Below the pieces are notes generated by a model. That model was not told where the DNA came from. It worked only from the letters and a program-made list of their open reading frames with translations, and did no database searches. A stretch of 64,000 bases of DNA from contig CBDCKN010000001.1 in NCBI GenBank assembly GCA_965218295.1, forward strand, positions 34,321-98,320, given 5' to 3'. Numbering within the stretch: position 1 is the first letter of the stretch; each line of letters opens with the position of its first letter. The DNA is from Longimicrobiales bacterium. GTDB taxonomy: Bacteria; Gemmatimonadota; Gemmatimonadetes; Longimicrobiales; Gaopeijiaceae. Positions 38,226-64,000 of this stretch are shown here, piece after piece. The translations under genes and the position numbers were made by a program.

Positions 38226-38538
38226 GGTGAAGTTCCTGGAATTTGGACCCCGAGCGTGGCTGGCCTTGCCCCGCTTGACTCGGTGGCGATCTAGCGGTCT
38301 CTGGTGCGACGAGAGCTAACCCCACCAACACCAGGGGCCGAGGCCGTGATCCACCATAGATCACCAGCTCGGTGGGATCTCGTGGAGAAGACGGCTGCCA
38401 GGTGCGGGATTATGCAGCAGGTCGGTGGTGGGACGGGAGCGACAAGGCTAACCGCCGGGGTCTCCCCCTCTCTGCCAACTTACGTGAGACACGGAGCAGC
38501 TAAGGAATTAGAGTAGGGCGAAGGCAGAGAAACCGAGG

Positions 38539-38988
38539 ATGCTGAGACACCGAGAGAGAATGAAAGAGAATGGAATAGCCCCACCAACCTGGGACGGTAA
38601 GCGAAGCGCGGCAGCTCCTGCGGACTCGGAGGTGGTAGATAGGCCGCTGCGCCGGCGGTTCGCTCCGTCGTACAAGCTGCGGATCGTCGAAGAAGCGGAC
38701 CGGTGCACGGAGCCCGGAGAGGTTGGCCGACTCCTACGGCGGGAGGGCTTGTACTCGTCGCACCTGACGACATGGCGCAAGGCGGCGCATAGCGGGTCCC
38801 TGAAAGCGCTGTCGAAGAAACGAGGCCGTAAGCGCGAGCGCAATCCGCTGGAGGAGAAGGTGCGCAAGCTGGAGCGCGAGAACACTCGCCTCGAGAAGGA
38901 GCTCCAGAAGGCGCACTTGATCATCGACGTCCAGGGAAAAGTTGCAGGGCTGCTGGGATTGAGCCTCGAGGACGGGACGAACTCATGA
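38539..38988 (+). CDS. IS3 transposase OrfA
   Basis: RRRFAPSYKLRIVEEAD..LLRREGLYSSHL..WRK HTH and coiled coil. Confidence 0.88.
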   Translation: MLRHRERMKENGIAPPTWDGKRSAAAPADSEVVDRPLRRRFAPSYKLRIVEEADRCTEPGEVGRLLRREGLYSSHLTTWRKAAHSGSLKALSKKRGRKRERNPLEEKVRKLERENTRLEKELQKAHLIIDVQGKVAGLLGLSLEDGTNS

Positions 38989-39992
38989 AGGCGACCCAGG
39001 AGCTAGCCAAGCACGTAGGGGTGAAGCCCGCGTGCGATGCGCTCAGGGTGCCGCGAGCCACGTTCTACCGTCGTCGGAGGCCATCGACCGGGCATCAGCA
39101 GCCCCGCCCGACCCCCGCCCGGGCCTTAAGCGAGAAGGAACGAGACAAGGTCTTCGACACGCTGTGTTCGGAGCGGTTCGTGGACCGGTCCCCAGCCGAG
39201 GTGGTGGCGACGCTGCTCGACGAGGACGTCTACCTGTGCAGCGAGCGTACGATGTATCGCGTTCTGGCTTCCCAGGTGCCGGTTCAGGAGCGTCGAGCGC
39301 AGCGGAGTCATCCCAAATACCAGAAACCCGAGTTGATGGCGAGGGGCCCGAACCAGGTCTGGTCCTGGGATATCACCCGGCTGCTGGGGCCGAAGAAGTG
39401 GAGTTACTTCTACCTCTACGTGATCCTGGACATCTTCAGCCGCTACGTCGTGGGATGGATGGTGGCGGATCGGGAGAACTCTGCCCTGGCCAGCCGGCTG
39501 ATCCAGCAGAGTTGCTTGAAGCATGGCGTCCAGCCCCACCTCCTGACCCTGCATTCCGATCGAGGGGCTCCGATGACGAGCCAATGCACGGCTCAACTAC
39601 TCGCCGATCTCGGCGTGACCCGCTCGTTGGGCCGACCCCAGGTCTCGGATGACAATCCGTTCTCCGAGGCTCAGTTCAAGACCTTGAAGTACCATCCCTC
39701 GTTTCCCGGCCGGTTCGGGGATCAGGGGCAAGCCAAGACCTTCTGTCGCTCGTTCTTCCGTTGGTATAATGCCGAGCACCGCCATGGCGGCATCTCGATG
39801 CTGACCCCCGAACAGGTCCACTTCGGTCACGCCGATCGGATCATCGCCTGCAGGAAGGCCGTGCTCCGTGAGGCATGGGCCGCTCATCCCGAGCGCTTCG
39901 TCTCCGGTGAGCCGAAGCCTAAACCACTCCCGGAGGCCGTCTGGATCAATCCTCCCACCCCATCCCTCACTACACAGGAGATTGCTCTCTAA
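38985..39992 (+). CDS. IS3 transposase OrfB (rve DDE)
   Basis: NQVWSWDIT, HSDRG, DNPFSEAQFKTLKY, YNAEHRH. Confidence 0.93.
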   Translation: MKATQELAKHVGVKPACDALRVPRATFYRRRRPSTGHQQPRPTPARALSEKERDKVFDTLCSERFVDRSPAEVVATLLDEDVYLCSERTMYRVLASQVPVQERRAQRSHPKYQKPELMARGPNQVWSWDITRLLGPKKWSYFYLYVILDIFSRYVVGWMVADRENSALASRLIQQSCLKHGVQPHLLTLHSDRGAPMTSQCTAQLLADLGVTRSLGRPQVSDDNPFSEAQFKTLKYHPSFPGRFGDQGQAKTFCRSFFRWYNAEHRHGGISMLTPEQVHFGHADRIIACRKAVLREAWAAHPERFVSGEPKPKPLPEAVWINPPTPSLTTQEIAL

Positions 39993-40064
39993 TTGATTTC
40001 CAAGAGTGTCTCACTGGCGTTGACAGGTTCCGCCCCATAGCCCTACCCACCACGTAGCGGCTCA

Positions 40065-40153
40065 GCTCAACTGATTGTTTCCACACTCGCCTTCACCCTC
40101 GACTCTACTGCCCGCTCCACCTAGAGTGTGGAAACAATCCTTAATCGTTAGAC
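40065..40153 (-). repeat. 16-bp inverted repeat inside an attC-like frame
   Basis: gattgtttccacactc / gagtgtggaaacaatc, bracketed on the minus strand by GTCTAAC and GTTGAGC. Confidence 0.45.
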
Positions 40154-40315
40154 GGCCGACTCCCCGGCACTGACGGGCGGTCGGATCGAGGGTGAGTCAA
40201 GGAACCAGAGGGGGAAGTTTTTGAGCGATTTCGGGGCATCGAACGCCGCAGACGGAACCGCGGCGGCACTTCGTCGGAAACCGATCGACCTGGCCCGAAG
40301 CGGCCATGGGGCAGG

Positions 40316-41043
40316 TCAGTAGGGGGTGGCGAAGTAGAATTTCGATCCGGTTTCTGCTTCGATCGCCCCATAGCCGTGGAACTCAGTTCCGTTGTCGGCC
40401 GTGATGGTGTGAGTGGGGCGAGCAGCAGTCTTGATCAGACGAACGGCTCGACGGTTCGTAGCCTCGACGGTACGAGCCTCGAGCTTGCCGATCATCACGT
40501 AGCCCGTCTTACGATCGACGAAGGTGAGGACGCAGTGCTTGTCGGAGCTGGTACCGATCACGGTATCGGCTTCGAGGTGGCCGACTCGGCTTCGGTTCTG
40601 TGCACCAGCTGGGCGCTCAGATATCGGCCGTTTGCCGGCCAACCGACCTCGGGAATCATAGGATCCGTACCGTTTTCGGCGTTGCTTGGGCGAACAGCGC
40701 AGATGCAGATACAGGCGGCCACCGCGCTTTCGGTCGCGCCAGATGTGGCGGTAGATGGTCTCGTGGCTGATCGAGAGCCGAGCCTTGCGCCGTAACCAGC
40801 CTGCGGCTTGCTCAGGGCTCCACTGTTGCCTGAGGCACGCCTCCACCATTCGCCAGTCCGATGCACCGAAGCGCTCATTGCGGCGCGATCTGCCTCGTCT
40901 CCACCGGGCGTAGTCATCGGCCAGGTCCGGTCGATAGGCCCGGCCCTGACGATCCTTCGAGTTGCGGCGCACCTCACGGCTGATCGTACTTCGATGTCGG
41001 CCCAGTGCTCGAGCGATCGCAGCTTGGTTGCATCCTTGTTTTC
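40316..41043 (-). pseudogene. IS30-family transposase, central part (3' truncated)
   Basis: IARALGRHRSTISREVRRN, WSPEQ, ISHETIY, GHLEADT, TITADNGTEF; stops at FATPY before the WERG/E region. Confidence 0.9.
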
Positions 41044-41334
41044 GGTAATTATATACCCCTTGCACGACAACTGCGGGTCAGTTAGCGTGGGGTATGAATC
41101 TGAGAGGTTGGCTTGGCAGGCCATACACTGCGGTGTGTGGTCTCGCAATGTTCACGGGTTTGTTGGTCGATTTTCAGGGTGCGGCCTCTAAGATGTCCAA
41201 AGGTCGTGCCTGTTCTTGCGGCGTTCCTCCCTATAATAGCTATAGGTGGAACGACGTTCTTCCCTCTCTGCCAACTTAGGTGAGACACGGAACGAGTAAA
41301 GAATTAGAGTAGGGCGAAGGCAGAGAAACCGAGG

Positions 41335-41787
41335 ATGCTGGGACACCGAGAGAGAATGGAAGAGAATGGAATCGCCCCACTAACCTGGGAGGGTAAGCGA
41401 AGCGCGGCAGCTGCTCCGGACGCGGAGGTGGTAGATAAGCCGACGCGCCGACGGTTTAGTCCGTCGTACAAGCTGCGGGTCGTCGAAGAAGCGGACCGGT
41501 GCACGGAGCCGGGAGAGGTAGGGCGACTCCTGCGACGGGAGGGCTTGTACTCGTCGCACCTGACGATATGGCGCAAGGCGGTGCGGAGTGGGTCGCTGAG
41601 AGTGCTGTCGAAGAGACGAGGTCGAAAGCCGAGCGAACGGAATCCGCTGGAGGGGAAAGTGCGCAAGCTGGAGCGCGAGAACACTCGCCTGGAGAAGGAA
41701 CTCGAGAAGGCGCGCCTGATCATCGACGTCCAGGGAAAAGTTGCAGGGCTGCTGGGATTGAGCCTCGAGGACGGGACGAACTCGTGA
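41335..41787 (+). CDS. IS3 transposase OrfA (copy 2)
   Basis: Homologous to 38539-38988. Confidence 0.88.
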   Translation: MLGHRERMEENGIAPLTWEGKRSAAAAPDAEVVDKPTRRRFSPSYKLRVVEEADRCTEPGEVGRLLRREGLYSSHLTIWRKAVRSGSLRVLSKRRGRKPSERNPLEGKVRKLERENTRLEKELEKARLIIDVQGKVAGLLGLSLEDGTNS

Positions 41788-42791
41788 AGGCGGCCGAGGC
41801 GCTGGCCACGTACGTAGGGGTAAAGCCCGCGTGCGATGCGCTCAGGGTCGCCCGAGCCACGTTCTATCGTCGTCGGAGGCCATCGACCGGGCATCAGCAG
41901 CCCCGCCCGACCCCAGCCCGGGCCTTGAGCGAGAAGGAACGAGACAAGGTCTTCGACACGCTGTGTTCGGAGCGATTCGTGGACCGGTCCCCGGCCGAGG
42001 TTGTGGCGACCCTGCTCGACGAAGACGTCTACCTGTGCAGCGAACGTACGATGTATCGCGTTCTGGCCTCCCAAGTGCCAGTTCGAGAGCGCCGAGCGCA
42101 GCGGAGTCATCCCGAATACCAGAAACCCGAGTTGATGGCGACGGGCCCGGGCCAGGTCTGGTCCTGGGATATCACACGGCTGCTGGGGCCGAGGAAGTGG
42201 AGCTACTTCTACCTCTACGTCATCATGGACATCTTCAGCCGCTACATCGTGGGATGGATGGTGGCGGATCGGGAGAGCTCGGCCTTGGCCGGGCGCCTGA
42301 TCCAGCAGAGTTGCCTGAAGCATGGCGTCCAGCCCCAGGTCCTGACCTTGCACTCGGATCGAGGAGCTCCGATGACGAGCCAATGCACGGCTCAGCTCCT
42401 CGCCGATCTCGGGGTGACCCGCTCGCTGAGCCGACCTCAGGTGTCGGATGACAATCCGTTCTCCGAGGCCCAGTTCAAGACCTTGAAGTACCATCCCTCG
42501 TTTCCTGGACGGTTCGAGGATCAGGGCCAGGCCAAAATGTTCTGTCGCTCGTTCTTCCGCTGGTACAATGCCGAGCACCGCCATGGCGGCATCTCGATGC
42601 TGACCCCCGAACAGGTCCACTTCGGTCACGCCGATCAGGTCATCGCCGGCAGGGAGGCCGTGCTACGCGAGGCCTGGGCCGCTCATCCCGACCGCTTCGT
42701 CTCCGGTGAGCCGAAGCCCAAACCGCTCCCGGAGGCCGTCTGGATCAATCCTCCAACCCCCTCCCTCACGACACAGGAGATTGCTCTCTAA
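41784..42791 (+). CDS. IS3 transposase OrfB (copy 2)
   Basis: Homologous to 38985-39992; GTG start. Confidence 0.92.
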   Translation: MKAAEALATYVGVKPACDALRVARATFYRRRRPSTGHQQPRPTPARALSEKERDKVFDTLCSERFVDRSPAEVVATLLDEDVYLCSERTMYRVLASQVPVRERRAQRSHPEYQKPELMATGPGQVWSWDITRLLGPRKWSYFYLYVIMDIFSRYIVGWMVADRESSALAGRLIQQSCLKHGVQPQVLTLHSDRGAPMTSQCTAQLLADLGVTRSLSRPQVSDDNPFSEAQFKTLKYHPSFPGRFEDQGQAKMFCRSFFRWYNAEHRHGGISMLTPEQVHFGHADQVIAGREAVLREAWAAHPDRFVSGEPKPKPLPEAVWINPPTPSLTTQEIAL

Positions 42792-43173
42792 TTAATTCCC
42801 AAGAGTGTCTCACTGGCGTTGACAGGCTCCGCTTTGGGCTTTGGTCAATAACGTCTATTTGGACGTTCCTTAGGTCACGGCGCCCTGCTGCGAGGTTTGG
42901 AACATACTATCACACTGTGGTTCAATGCCGTGATGCCGCCAGGTTCGCGATGGAATGTTCCACGCACAGTGCAGAACTGTATGCTGACTTGCGGCAACTT
43001 TCCGAAATATTGGGAAGGTTGGGCATAGAGTGTCCATCCGTATTCCCAGATGACCAGAAATATTCAAGTATATGGTTCGCCTTTCTGACTGAATTGAGCT
43101 CACTGGCTTTCCATGGAGATTTGACCAAAGCGCGCAGGCTAAAAAAGTTGATGTCCCTGTGAACAGACAGATG

Positions 43174-44082
43174 TTACGCGGCGGCTGTCAGCTCGCGGTA
43201 CCGGAGGGCCTGGCCGTCCAGGAGACGGATCAGGACGGCCTCGAAGATGTAGGGGTCGTTCCGGTGGTTGATCCTGAACTCGACTTCGGACAGGTAGGCG
43301 TCCAGGTGCTTGGCGCTGACCTGGTGCCATGCTCCGACGATGGAGCGCTTGAGAAGGCTCCAGACACCCTCTACGCTGTTCGTGTGGACATCTCCGACCA
43401 CCCACTCCTCTTCGGAGTGTTTGACCGTCTCATGGCGCGTGTCGTGATCGGCGATCCCGAGGTAGGACTTAAGCTCGTCGGTGTAGATGGCCTCGGTGTC
43501 GGACCGCGTGTTCCTGGCGATGAAGGCGTGGAGCGTGGCCCGCTTGATGTTGGGGACCGCCTCGATACGCACCTCGCCGCCACGCTGGACGGCTCCGGCG
43601 ACCCACGTCTTGCCGACGCGGTTGCCGGTACCGACGCCGCGCCTCTTGCCGCCGACCAGGGTCTCGTCCACCTCGACCACGCCGAACAGGGTCGGCCCGC
43701 CCGAGAGATTGCCCCGCATGGCCGACCGGATACGATGGCACAGGTGCCACGCGGTCTTGTAGGTGACGCCGATCGTCCGCTTGATCTGGTTCGCGCTGAT
43801 GCTCTTCTTCGACTCGCAGACCAGGTAGATCGTTACGAACCACTTCCAGAGCGGAAGGTTCGTGTTGTCGAAGATGGTTCCCGAAGTAACGCTGAAGCGG
43901 TAGCGGCACCCGTTGCAGTCGAACTGGTCACGGGTGCTGATCTCCGAGACGGACATGTCGCCGCAGCGCGGGCAAGCAACCGCCCCCGACCAGCGCAGCT
44001 TCTCAAGGTATTCGCGGCAAGTCTCTTCGTCGCGGAACTTTTCGATCAACGAAATCAGATTGATTCTGGAGGTGTCAACCAT
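43174..44082 (-). CDS. IS1595-family transposase
   Basis: Zn ribbon CPRCG..CNGC, FSVTSGTIF, VEVDET, IYTDE, HTNSVEGVWS, YLSEVEFR. Confidence 0.95.
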   Translation of the reverse strand: MVDTSRINLISLIEKFRDEETCREYLEKLRWSGAVACPRCGDMSVSEISTRDQFDCNGCRYRFSVTSGTIFDNTNLPLWKWFVTIYLVCESKKSISANQIKRTIGVTYKTAWHLCHRIRSAMRGNLSGGPTLFGVVEVDETLVGGKRRGVGTGNRVGKTWVAGAVQRGGEVRIEAVPNIKRATLHAFIARNTRSDTEAIYTDELKSYLGIADHDTRHETVKHSEEEWVVGDVHTNSVEGVWSLLKRSIVGAWHQVSAKHLDAYLSEVEFRINHRNDPYIFEAVLIRLLDGQALRYRELTAAA

Positions 44083-44227
44083 GGGTCATACCCGGCGTAA
44101 AGAGGACAAGCTACCGAAGGACGTAAGGCACCTAACGGGCGACCAGGTGATGGAGAAGTTGTTCTCTAAGAAAGTGGCTAAAGAACTGAAGAAGGTCGCC
44201 CATGAGAAGGGCCGGAAAGCGAAGTGA
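44081..44227 (+). CDS. 48-aa basic peptide inside IS1595
   Basis: GGAGGT RBS 7 nt upstream of ATG; Lys-rich. Confidence 0.5.
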   Translation: MGHTRRKEDKLPKDVRHLTGDQVMEKLFSKKVAKELKKVAHEKGRKAK

Positions 44228-44286
44228 ATATCCATACACTGAATCTAATACAACCGGCTCTGCCGTGCAAGGGGTATATAATTACC

Positions 44287-44349
44287 TTGTTTTCTGAGCG
44301 CAGAGAGCGCATATCGCTCACCAGAGGTGAGCTGGCGATACCTGTTCAT
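44287..44349 (-). pseudogene. IS30 transposase N-terminus
   Basis: MNRYRQLTSGERYALSALRKQ joins in frame to 41043 once IS1595 and one TSD copy are removed. Confidence 0.88.
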
Positions 44350-44368
44350 GAACTTCCTCTTTTTCGTC

Positions 44369-45825
44369 GAAGCTGTCCCAACCGTAGTTGAAGGTTCCTG
44401 ATAGGGGAGAAAGAAAAGTGGTGGCTCCGGGGGTCCCGGGCCGATAGGCTCGGGTAGGCAAAAACCCCAACACGGAGCCACCACGATGAAGAGAACGTAC
44501 GAGGTAAGGGATCGGGCGGACAAGCGCGCGATCAGGGAGTTCCTGAAGCGGGAGGGGCAGTTTCTGCTTCCGATGCTTGAGCTCGTGGAGCAGACGGAGG
44601 TCGCGATCGACGAAGTCATCCAGGTGATGGGACGAGCGACGATCGAAGCGGTGCTGGAGATGAGCGCCGAGGGTGTGGCAGGCGTGAAGCAGGCAGGTCG
44701 GTCACGAGCGGAAGACGACACGGTGTGGTATGGCCGGCAGGGTGGTGTGGTTTACCTGTCGGACCGGAAGGTGCGTGTGGAGCGGCCACGGCTCAGGCGC
44801 CGGGGCGCCGGGGAGGGTGGCGAGGTCGAGGTGCCGGCGTACGCAGCGATGCGGAGACCGGGCGCCGTGGCGGATCGGATGCTCGAGGTCCTGATGGCGG
44901 GGGTGAGCACGCGGAAGTACGGCCGTGTGATCGGTGAGATGGCCGACACGGTCGGGGTGAGCAAGTCGGCGGTGAGCCGTGAGACGGTCGAGGCCTCGGA
45001 GCGCGTGCTGAAGGAGCTGATGGAGCGCCGGCTGGATGCGTGGGACCTCCTGGTGATCTACCTGGACGGGATCCAGATGGGCTCGCACCACGTGCTTGCT
45101 GCGGTAGGCGTGGACTCAGACGGAAAGAAGCACGTGCTGGGCGTGAGGGAAGGAGCGAGTGAGAACGCCGAGGTGACCGGGGCGCTCCTAGAGGATCTGG
45201 TCGAGCGCGGCCTGGACCCGGGCAGGCGGCGGCTGTTCGTGATCGATGGCTCGAAAGCGCTCAGGAAGGCGATCGAGAAGGTGTTCGGCCAACGTCACCC
45301 CATCCAGCGCTGCCGCAACCACAAGCTCCGCAACGTGCTGGGTCATCTGCCGAAGGATCAGCATCCTCAGGTGAAGGCGGCGTTCCGGGCGGCGATGAAG
45401 CTGGACGCGAAGCAGGGCGAGCAGAAGCTCGAGCAGCTCGCCCGATGGCTCGAGCGCGACCACCCCTCGGCCTCGGCCAGCCTACGCGAAGGCCTCAGCG
45501 AGATGTTCACGATCAACCGGCTCGGCCTCCCGCCGCGGCTGAGGAAGTGCCTGGGCTCGACCAACCTGATCGACAGCACCCACTCGGGCGTAAGACAGAA
45601 GACCCGCAGGGTGACCAACTGGAAGAACGGAGCGATGGCCTTGCGCTGGGCTGCGGCCTCGTTCGTGGAGACCGAGAAGAGCTACCGGAGGATCATCGGC
45701 TACGACCAGCTCTGGATGCTCAGGGCCCACCTCGACGACCATGAACCGGTTGCCGAAATGAGAAAGGCAGGCTAACAAGGAGACTCTCCGGAGCCACCAC
45801 CTTCAACTGTCAGCGGGACACCATC
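44369..45825 (+). mobile_element. IS256-family element
   Basis: IR GAAGCTGTCCC..AGTTGAAGGT / GATGGTGTCCC..AGTTGAAGGT; 8-bp TSD ttttcgtc. Confidence 0.92.
44486..45775 (+). CDS. IS256-family transposase
   Basis: GVSTRKY, SKSAVS, IYLDG, VIDGSKAL, QRCRNHK, STNLID. Confidence 0.95.
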   Translation: MKRTYEVRDRADKRAIREFLKREGQFLLPMLELVEQTEVAIDEVIQVMGRATIEAVLEMSAEGVAGVKQAGRSRAEDDTVWYGRQGGVVYLSDRKVRVERPRLRRRGAGEGGEVEVPAYAAMRRPGAVADRMLEVLMAGVSTRKYGRVIGEMADTVGVSKSAVSRETVEASERVLKELMERRLDAWDLLVIYLDGIQMGSHHVLAAVGVDSDGKKHVLGVREGASENAEVTGALLEDLVERGLDPGRRRLFVIDGSKALRKAIEKVFGQRHPIQRCRNHKLRNVLGHLPKDQHPQVKAAFRAAMKLDAKQGEQKLEQLARWLERDHPSASASLREGLSEMFTINRLGLPPRLRKCLGSTNLIDSTHSGVRQKTRRVTNWKNGAMALRWAAASFVETEKSYRRIIGYDQLWMLRAHLDDHEPVAEMRKAG

Positions 45826-62731: not shown

Positions 62732-63015
62732 CCCTCTCTGCCAACTTACGTGAGACACGGAGCAGCTAAGGAATTAGAGTAGGGCGAAGGCAGAGAAACC
62801 GAGGATGCTGAGACACCGAGAGAGAATGAAAGAGAATGGAATAGCCCCACCAACCTGGGACGGTAAGCGAAGCGCGGCAGCTCCTGCGGACTCGGAGGTG
62901 GTAGATAGGCCGCTGCGGCCGGCGGTTCGCTCCGTCGTACAAGCTGCGGATCGTCGAAGAAGCGGACCGGTGCACGGAGCCCGGAGAGGTTGGCCGACTC
63001 CTACGGCGGGAGGGC
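62732..63015 (+). mobile_element. IS3-family element, copy 3 (left part), interrupted by IS481
   Basis: Near-identical to copy 1 from ccctctcTGCCAAC onward, with one extra G. Confidence 0.9.
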
Positions 63016-64000
63016 TGTACAGAGATGGTAATGACCTGACAGTTGGCCCTCGCCGGAGCTGTGTCTAGGCTGCCTTCGTCTTAGCCTCCTCCTTCCTGGC
63101 CTTTGCGGCCTTCCTGGCGTCGGTGAGACCGGCCTTGAAGACCTGATAGGGCGTGCGGCCCTCCATGGCTCGACCGCGGTGCGGCCGCTTCCGGTTGTAG
63201 GTCTCCAGATACGCCTCGAGGTCCTGCTGCATCTCCTCGACGGTCTCGTACCAGGTGGTGCGGCCCTTCACCCTCAAGTGCTCGTCGAGGAGCGTGCGGT
63301 GGAAGCGCTCGATGAAGCCGTTGGACTGGGGCCTGCCCACCTTCGTCGTGCGGTGCTCGATGTCCTCGAGCTGAAGGAACAGCTCATATGGGTGACGGTC
63401 CGGACGGCCGCAGAACTCGCGGCCGTTGTCGCTGAGCACGGTCTTCACCCGGACCCGGTGCTCATCGAAGAACGGCAACACGTCGTTATTCATCACCTGC
63501 ACCGCCGTGAGCGGGAGCTTGCTCGTGTAGAGCCGGCCCCAGGCGTAGCGGCTGAAGCAATCGAGCACGGTCTGCAGGTACACCTTGCCGACCCCCTTCA
63601 GCGTTCCGACGAAGAACGTGTCCACGGCGACGAGGTCGCCCGGGTAATGGACTTCGATGTGGCGCTCCCGGAACTCGGGACTGAAGCGCTCCAGCAGCTC
63701 GATCTGCTCGTCGGTCAGCTTCAGCTTCCGTTCCCTGGCCGTCTCTTCGAGCCTGAGCAGCCGTTCGTGCTTCGTGGTGAGGCCATGCCGGCTCCACACG
63801 CCCCGTACGCCTCCTGAGCTCACCTGGATCCCTCCGAGCAGCAACTCGTCCGCGACCCGCTGAGCTCCGTGCGTCGGAGCCTCCAAGGCGTGGGCCAAGA
63901 CCGCCTGCTCAATCTCTTCACTCACCCGGTTCGGGTGCGGTCCCTTCGGCCCCGGAAGCTGGTCGATCAGCCCCTCGGCCCCGTAAAGCTGGAAGTTCCT
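63016..64000 (-). mobile_element. IS481-family element (partial; runs off the window)
   Basis: TGT terminus at 63016 where IS3 homology stops; carries the transposase below. Confidence 0.8.
63065..64000 (-). CDS. IS481-family transposase (5' end outside the window)
   Basis: PGDLVAVDTF, LSDNGREFCG, PQSNGFIERFHRT, YNRKRPH. Confidence 0.92.
   Translation of the reverse strand, partial: RNFQLYGAEGLIDQLPGPKGPHPNRVSEEIEQAVLAHALEAPTHGAQRVADELLLGGIQVSSGGVRGVWSRHGLTTKHERLLRLEETARERKLKLTDEQIELLERFSPEFRERHIEVHYPGDLVAVDTFFVGTLKGVGKVYLQTVLDCFSRYAWGRLYTSKLPLTAVQVMNNDVLPFFDEHRVRVKTVLSDNGREFCGRPDRHPYELFLQLEDIEHRTTKVGRPQSNGFIERFHRTLLDEHLRVKGRTTWYETVEEMQQDLEAYLETYNRKRPHRGRAMEGRTPYQVFKAGLTDARKAAKARKEEAKTKAA

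Follow-up and report, generated by a model that had tools for sequence, protein, structure and literature searches.

A 64,000-nucleotide stretch of a Longimicrobiales genome (assembly GCA_965218295.1, contig CBDCKN010000001.1), hereafter the window, carries two complete copies and one partial copy of an insertion sequence (IS) of the IS3 family, and the question raised by this locus is where the element really ends and how it moves. The inverted repeats of these copies are bounded by TG and CA, the dinucleotides that close canonical IS3 elements, and the same few bases lie outside them in each copy. A preliminary description, made from the window alone, proposed that the ends extend 7-8 bp beyond TG..CA and that normal target duplications are absent. 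The element is a highly active IS3-family IS from a deep branch of the family, which has 7-bp asymmetric tips, makes 3-bp target duplications and likely transposes by a copy-out/paste-in route through a circle whose ends are joined without a spacer.

True ends of the element

The ends were located genome-wide by the inner repeat alone and the sequence outward of it was then read. CCCTCTC precedes the inner TG in 55/55 left ends and GG(T/C)TCCG follows the inner CA in 55/55 right ends, the termini in this genome being C...G, without TG...CA, in all of them. Conservation drops sharply past 7 bp on the left and on the right, the base at position 8 being variable at either end. The right extension had been given as GG(T/C)TCCGC, of which the first 7 bp stand and the eighth base does not, C being found at position +8 in only 20 of 55 right ends. 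The observation that CCCTCTC lies outside the left TG of all three window copies (38466, 41262 and 62732) is correct, as is the proposal of a DDE (rve) lineage with ends at an offset from TG..CA, which is 7 bp outside; the possibility that other copies lack the extensions is answered by the 55 left and 55 right ends, all of which carry the tips. The left and right tips are complementary at their first and last bases only. Six canonical elements used as controls end in TG..CA (three by script, three by eye).

Copy 1 is a complete IS of 1,567 bp on the forward strand (38466..40032) with true ends C...G. From left to right, it has the tip CCCTCTC (38466..38472), an inner left repeat of the form TGCCAA-N6-TGAGACAC (38473..38492), which is a probable transposase-binding domain and includes a predicted TG-extended -10 box (38476-38481), an inner right repeat (40006..40025), whose 3' end is a perfect -35 hexamer TTGACA (40020-40025), and the tip GGTTCCG (40026..40032). 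Copy 2 (41262..42831, forward strand) is a complete isoform of 1,570 bp, and its identity of 91.5% to copy 1 agrees with its earlier designation as a diverged isoform. Copy 3 consists of the left 289 bp only (62732..63020, forward strand); after it comes an integrase-like frame on the reverse strand that does not group with IS3. Of the 3.57 Mb of the genome, the element occupies 80,322 bp.

Target duplications and empty sites

Duplications in the 39 simple full-length copies measure 3 bp in 22, 5 bp in 1, 2 bp in 6, 1 bp in 2 and 0 bp in 8, while the chance rate for a 3-bp duplication is 1.3% (cross-pair). An offset scan of this genome gives a sole peak of 3-bp duplications at 7/7 and none at 0/0, the TG/CA positions. 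Copy 2 is flanked by CTT at 41259..41261 and again at 42832-42834 (forward strand), and four uninterrupted alleles in the genome have a single CTT and neither tip. The claim that target duplications are missing is therefore refuted by the 22 copies, copy 2 among them. In the preliminary description, the first C of the duplication of copy 2 had been counted as part of the element. Twelve copies have a left flank that recurs uninterrupted in the genome; exactly three bases are duplicated in six of them and three bases with one mismatch in a seventh, and the other five are composite, nested or rearranged. At copy 1, a contig of sequencing run X6 represents the empty allele and skips 1,569 bp, which matches the 1,567 bp of the copy plus the 2-bp duplication CC (38464..38465 and 40033-40034, forward strand; joint position ambiguous by 4). 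Target sites have no fixed consensus and only a mild G/C bias.

The empty alleles bear on two other explanations of the 7-bp motifs. The motifs could be a target-site preference and lie outside the element, in which case empty sites would already contain them; the empty alleles, among them the four of copy 2, have neither motif, which refutes this explanation, and in the junctions described below the two motifs are directly joined. The tips are thus part of the element, as first proposed, and a target preference has practically no probability left. An insertion of the IS110/IS1111 kind, with subterminal repeats, no duplication and a single shared C as the point of recombination, had been offered by analogy, and the repeats do look subterminal and the junctions of relatives are spacerless. 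This reading is rejected, its probability being negligible, by the normal 3-bp duplications and the empty alleles, by an enzyme that is of the DDE/rve type with an integrase fold and not the DEDD recombinase by which IS110/IS1111 is recognized, by the lack of a fixed target base, and by the finding of no Rfam RNA family at 38300-43200 (one weak sub-threshold match).

Copies with 2-bp duplications have a peculiarity of their own. In eight of nine such copies, from this genome and from loci L036, L050 and L193, the next base equals the terminal base of the element (C to its right, G to its left), compared with 45% in other copies, and the lone exception is a composite copy. This pattern may hint at a 1-nt slippage at the ends. 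No copy without a terminal base was seen in this genome.

Transposase and its branch

Copy 1 has two frames on the forward strand, orfA (38539..38988), which encodes 149 aa with an HTH_Tnp_1 helix-turn-helix, and orfB (38985..39992), which encodes 335 aa with the rve/DDE core and a conserved C-terminal HPERF...WINP tail. They overlap in -1 phase, and a -1 frameshift at the candidate heptamer G GGA AAA (38934..38940, forward strand; the same in copy 2) would fuse them. OrfB passes the IS3 transposase model NF033516 with 177.7 bits against a cut-off of 160. Membership in IS481 was considered and rejected, the score with NF033577 being 75 bits, below 224, and the element having two frames where the IS481 criterion is a single frame. 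The catalytic residues of OrfB are D129, D192, E228 and K235, which form a DD(35)E triad with K at E+7; in 60 aligned proteins D129 and D192 are invariant, E228 and K235 are nearly so, and the HPERF...WINP tail is common to them. The structure model of OrfB has a predicted local distance difference test (pLDDT) value of 87 and has its matches in TnsB, retroviral integrases and IstA.

With its OrfA/OrfB pair, the transposase is a DDE enzyme of the IS3 type and, by sequence comparison, is placed on a deep branch together with ISAzs23, ISAs20, IS1240 and ISPsy31. Core identity is 40-65% inside the branch and at most 33% outside it, with 28.5% to IS3 itself. In trees whose rows were grouped by protein similarity, 34 branch cores and 6 canonical IS3 cores are split by a long branch with support of 98/96 and 99. 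Cluster representatives at E <= 1e-30 number 1,943, which is a rough measure of branch size only. Relatives come from many phyla, and the best 80 of 502 loci give the consensus CCCTCNN-TGYCAA-N6-TGAGACA for the left end and TGTCTCA-N6-TTGACA-NNTTCCG for the right end. After loci from 8 genomes were added, 93 distinct complete copies located by the inner motif were available from other genomes; 92/93 start with CCC and 93/93 end with CCG, and a 3-bp duplication is present in 60 of them, a 4-bp one in 4 and a 2-bp one in 3, while the other 26 have 0-1 bp. The four members named by plasmid matches, ISAzs23, ISAs20, IS1240 and ISPsy31, all have CCC.../...CCG tips. Both tips were found in relatives from Enterococcus, Moraxella, E. 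coli and Streptomyces, one tip in four more, and neither tip in locus L212.

Two features of single relatives were also seen. Seven of them (L089, L091, L095, L104, L113, L128 and L129) have 7 bp, not 6, between the motifs of the left inner repeat and keep 6 bp on the right, a further asymmetry between left and right. Locus L050, a branch member that has the same tips, comes from an archaeal (Methanoregula) assembly.

The inner TG..CA

The odd feature of the element is its outer domain, with two different tips that are conserved across phyla and have no TG/CA. The most fitting reading of the inner TG..CA is a -35 hexamer together with its mirror, both lying within the probable binding domain, rather than a terminus. 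The motif is taken as an internal site because in canonical elements (ISKpn18 and L206) TTGACC stands 6 bp inward of the terminal CA. The other possibility is that the inner TG..CA is an ancestral IS3 terminus and that the tips are captured flanking sequence, fixed as the cut site shifted outwards. This would suit the matching 7-bp offset of TG and CA from both ends and the non-complementary tips, and is nevertheless improbable, since the canonical elements already have the motif at that internal place, the total repeat length is about equal (26-27 bp), and in IS1240, ISPsy31 and ISAs20 the inner position reads TTGAAA, with no CA.

End-to-end junctions

Junctions were sought in metagenomes by a pattern consisting of the whole right tip, 0-8 bp and the whole left tip, and were accepted when both inner repeats lay within 2 mismatches. 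The pattern has 54 matches, 53 metagenomic and 1 viral, the latter not an IS end; an IS1240-type pattern has 0 viral matches. Both inner repeats are present in 15 matches (13 distinct), one repeat only in 11 and neither in 28, and in these 28 the spacers are scattered. The spacer of the 13 distinct junctions, all from relatives, is 0 bp in 12 and 1 bp in one (L137). The OrfB C-terminal motif lies upstream of 10/13 junctions and OrfA-like starts lie downstream of several. The core of junction L113, TTGACA GGTTCCG CCCTCTC TGCCAA, is the same 26-bp core that both ends of the window element would form. Circularity was judged from the sequences of the junction loci: the contig of L134/L135 has 1,660 bp, a period of 1,533 bp and an exact terminal overlap of 127 bp, and is a closed 1,533-bp circle, as output by the assembler. 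Twelve of the 13 junction contigs are 2,125 bp or shorter.

The spacerless joint would also build a promoter. Among dereplicated ends, the right-end hexamer is TTGACA in 48/50, and its left mirror reads TTGACA in 5/48. A -10-type A..T lies 17 bp from the spacerless joint in 39/48 left ends versus 7/50 right ends, a contrast with a Fisher p of about 1e-11, which is overstated by kinship, kin not being independent. Junction L128 has a promoter score of 12/12 with an 18-bp spacer, the one junction promoter called by a promoter scanner in three junctions tried. The junction predicted in the preliminary description, with TTGACA placed 17 nt from a weak TG-extended -10 box, is present in relatives and was not found for the window element itself.

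It is conceivable, and in our view unlikely, that the ends are as described and the spacerless joints are by-products of blunt excision with host ligation, or tandem dimers, the real route being cut-and-paste or circles with a spacer. Most junction contigs come without proof of circularity, three probable joints have 1, 3 and 5 bp, and no junction was seen for the window element in its genome or in Logan contigs of 8 runs, all of which would fit by-products. Against them stand the -35 and -10 signatures, which are end-specific and 17-18 bp apart only at spacer 0, the one closed circle of unit length, and the use of circles by IS3-type enzymes (PMC3299598, PMC3219604).

Several observations weigh against transposition through a spacerless circle as proposed here, or against parts of that proposal. 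No end-to-start joint of the window element was found in its own genome or in the Logan contigs of the 8 runs, contigs of a kind that drops rare variants, and no junction was present in 401 genomes of the phylum or in 23 genomes carrying relatives. The 1-bp spacer of L137 means that spacerless junctions are not universal; L109, with 3 bp, and L101, with 5 bp and a different inner-repeat subtype, failed the criterion and look by eye like real joints, and the metagenome pattern covered neither junctions with lost bases nor the IS1240 subgroup. Circularity is evident for one contig only, and the remaining ones could be tandem dimers; 10/13 junction contigs have accession prefixes close to one another and may stem from a single campaign. 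The scanner called no junction promoter in L111 or L113, the -10 box of the window copy (CAACTT) is weak, and a stimulatory hairpin downstream of the frameshift heptamer was not significant (z = 0.81). The tree had only 6 canonical outgroups, and its long branches meet.

Proposed transposition route

In the copy-out/paste-in route that we favour, a -1 frameshift would yield OrfAB, which would bind the inner repeats at positions 8-27 of the ends. OrfAB would nick at the terminal G of one end, and the attack would fall on the very tip of the other end because its spacing from the inner site is fixed; the distance between inner motifs is 14 bp here, versus 6+3+6 = 15 bp if a 3-bp spacer is assumed for ISKpn18-type ends. 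Replication would then release the circle, whose joint would set TTGACA 17-18 bp from the -10 box of the left end and so lead to more transposase. Finally, both strands would be cut at the same position, leaving blunt ends, and joined to the target with a 3-bp stagger. Each base of the junction recurs once in integrated copies, which points to a blunt cut of the productive circle and insertion with a 3-bp stagger.

Surroundings of the copies

The element is often nested in its own copies (C3, C9, C13, C15), the DNA next to 15 ends being the element's own, and two of these ends sit within terminal repeats. Self-nesting within terminal repeats recalls the inverted repeat-targeted insertion of IS911. 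Immediately right of copy 1 lies an 89-bp imperfect palindrome (40065-40153), bounded by RYYYAAC and GTTRRRY and present in one copy only in the genome, which we take to resemble an integron attC site. Copy 2 is hosted by a repeat (40316-41261 and 42832-43170) that recurs uninterrupted four more times elsewhere in this genome. An adjoining frame on the reverse strand, 40316-41065, has HTH_38 and weak rve matches and is IS30-like. A dense cluster of IS follows at 43174-45775, with an IS1595-family transposase (43174-44082) and a 429-aa frame (44486-45775), IS256-like as judged by eye.

Significance

The element behaves as an IS3 member and passes the protein tests of the family, and lacks the TG..CA ends and, in the junctions of relatives, the donor-derived spacer. 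The spacer of the circle has been explained by geometry, flanking DNA and not the recipient tip entering the active site (PMC7780238), and its length usually equals that of the duplication (PMC3299598). Both this rule and the degree to which integrase-family enzymes need a CA-3' end are put directly to the test by a large natural branch whose junctions have 0 bp, whose 3' ends are G and whose duplications are 3-4 bp. Annotation at the inner TG..CA shifts both ends by 7 bp and conceals the duplications, which is what befell the preliminary description, and high-copy elements such as ISPsy31 belong to the branch. The outward-facing -35 box on every right end could, going by its sequence, activate neighbouring genes.

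The larger claim, which we hold to be evenly balanced, is that these elements form an undescribed cross-phylum IS3-type subgroup in which CA-3' is replaced by two fixed, different tips, copy-out/paste-in runs through a perfectly spacerless circle, the DDE transposase strikes precisely at the tip of the partner end, the junction is then cut bluntly, and a spacer of 0 is uncoupled from a duplication of 3-4, possibly with the aid of the HPERF...WINP tail. The elements themselves, and at least the boundaries of ISPsy31, are already catalogued: its outer length here is 1,667 bp, the length published in Table 2 of PMC6053426, from which it follows that these boundaries were already curated. The preliminary description allowed that the end structure might be documented already, and for the length of ISPsy31 this is so. 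In the literature searched no account of the tips or of a spacerless junction was found, and ISfinder, TnPedia or subscription reviews may mention them.

Comparison with known systems

The closest named relative is ISAzs23, a RefSeq product name on an Azospirillum sp. B510 plasmid (L081), whose OrfB is 54.6% identical to that of the window element. A separate member of the window element's branch, it has 1,602 bp, tips CCCTCTG / CGTTCCG, the same inner repeat and the 3-bp duplication TTC, and no papers naming it were found in the literature searched. ISPsy31, IS1240 and ISAs20, from Pseudomonas and Aeromonas, are on the same branch, with OrfB 41-43% identical to that of the window element and tips CCCCCGG / AACGCCG. 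They differ from it in an inner motif of the TAGTTGTCGC type, in the -35 TTGAAA and in a duplication of 4 bp, which was seen here in copies of IS1240 and ISAs20 (L082, L088) and has been reported for ISAs20 (PMC7104195). ISAs9 and ISAs20 have been grouped as type IS1240 (PMC5756416), ISPsy31 has been called IS3/IS911-type (PMC5895724, PMC3583860), and IS1240 is merely listed as absent in PMC3189936. The available text on ISPsy31, IS1240 and ISAs20 has no discussion of their tips or junction, and that of bioRxiv 2023.06.07.543989 has nothing on the branch of the window element. The circles in PMC5737581 and PMC3877037 belong to the IS407 group, which is not this branch, and the 'new subgroup' of PMC3646047 is one of rhodopsins. 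With regard to the described IS3 subgroups (IS2, IS3, IS51, IS150 and IS407), the branch is separate from the 6 canonical cores, which sample part of these subgroups.

A fixed circle junction is known in IS110/IS1111. The likeness of the window element to that group lies in repeats set back from the ends, which are subterminal there (PMC11187229), while IS110/IS1111 elements have a DEDD enzyme and RNA-guided targeting and the window element has a DDE enzyme, 3-bp duplications and little target specificity.

IS911, IS3 and IS150 share with the window element the orfA/orfB layout, the DD(35)E core and a duplication of 3-4 bp, and also a circle with a junction promoter, both of which are predicted for the window element. 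IS3-family ends are in most cases CA-3', and junctions generally have one or more host bases (PMC3219604), 2-4 bp in IS3, IS150 and IS911 and 1-2 bp in IS2 (PMC3299598), the donor DNA being similar in length to the duplication (PMC3219604, PMC3299598). Unlike IS911, IS3 and IS150, the window element has G 3' ends and non-complementary tips, and its relatives have a spacer of 0. IS2 resembles it in its asymmetric ends and in a spacer much shorter than the duplication, and needs 17 bp for its junction promoter (PMC3299598). While IS2 has CA at the right end, TA at the left end and a 1-bp spacer that is needed, the window element has neither CA nor TA at its ends, and the spacer in the junctions of its relatives is 0.

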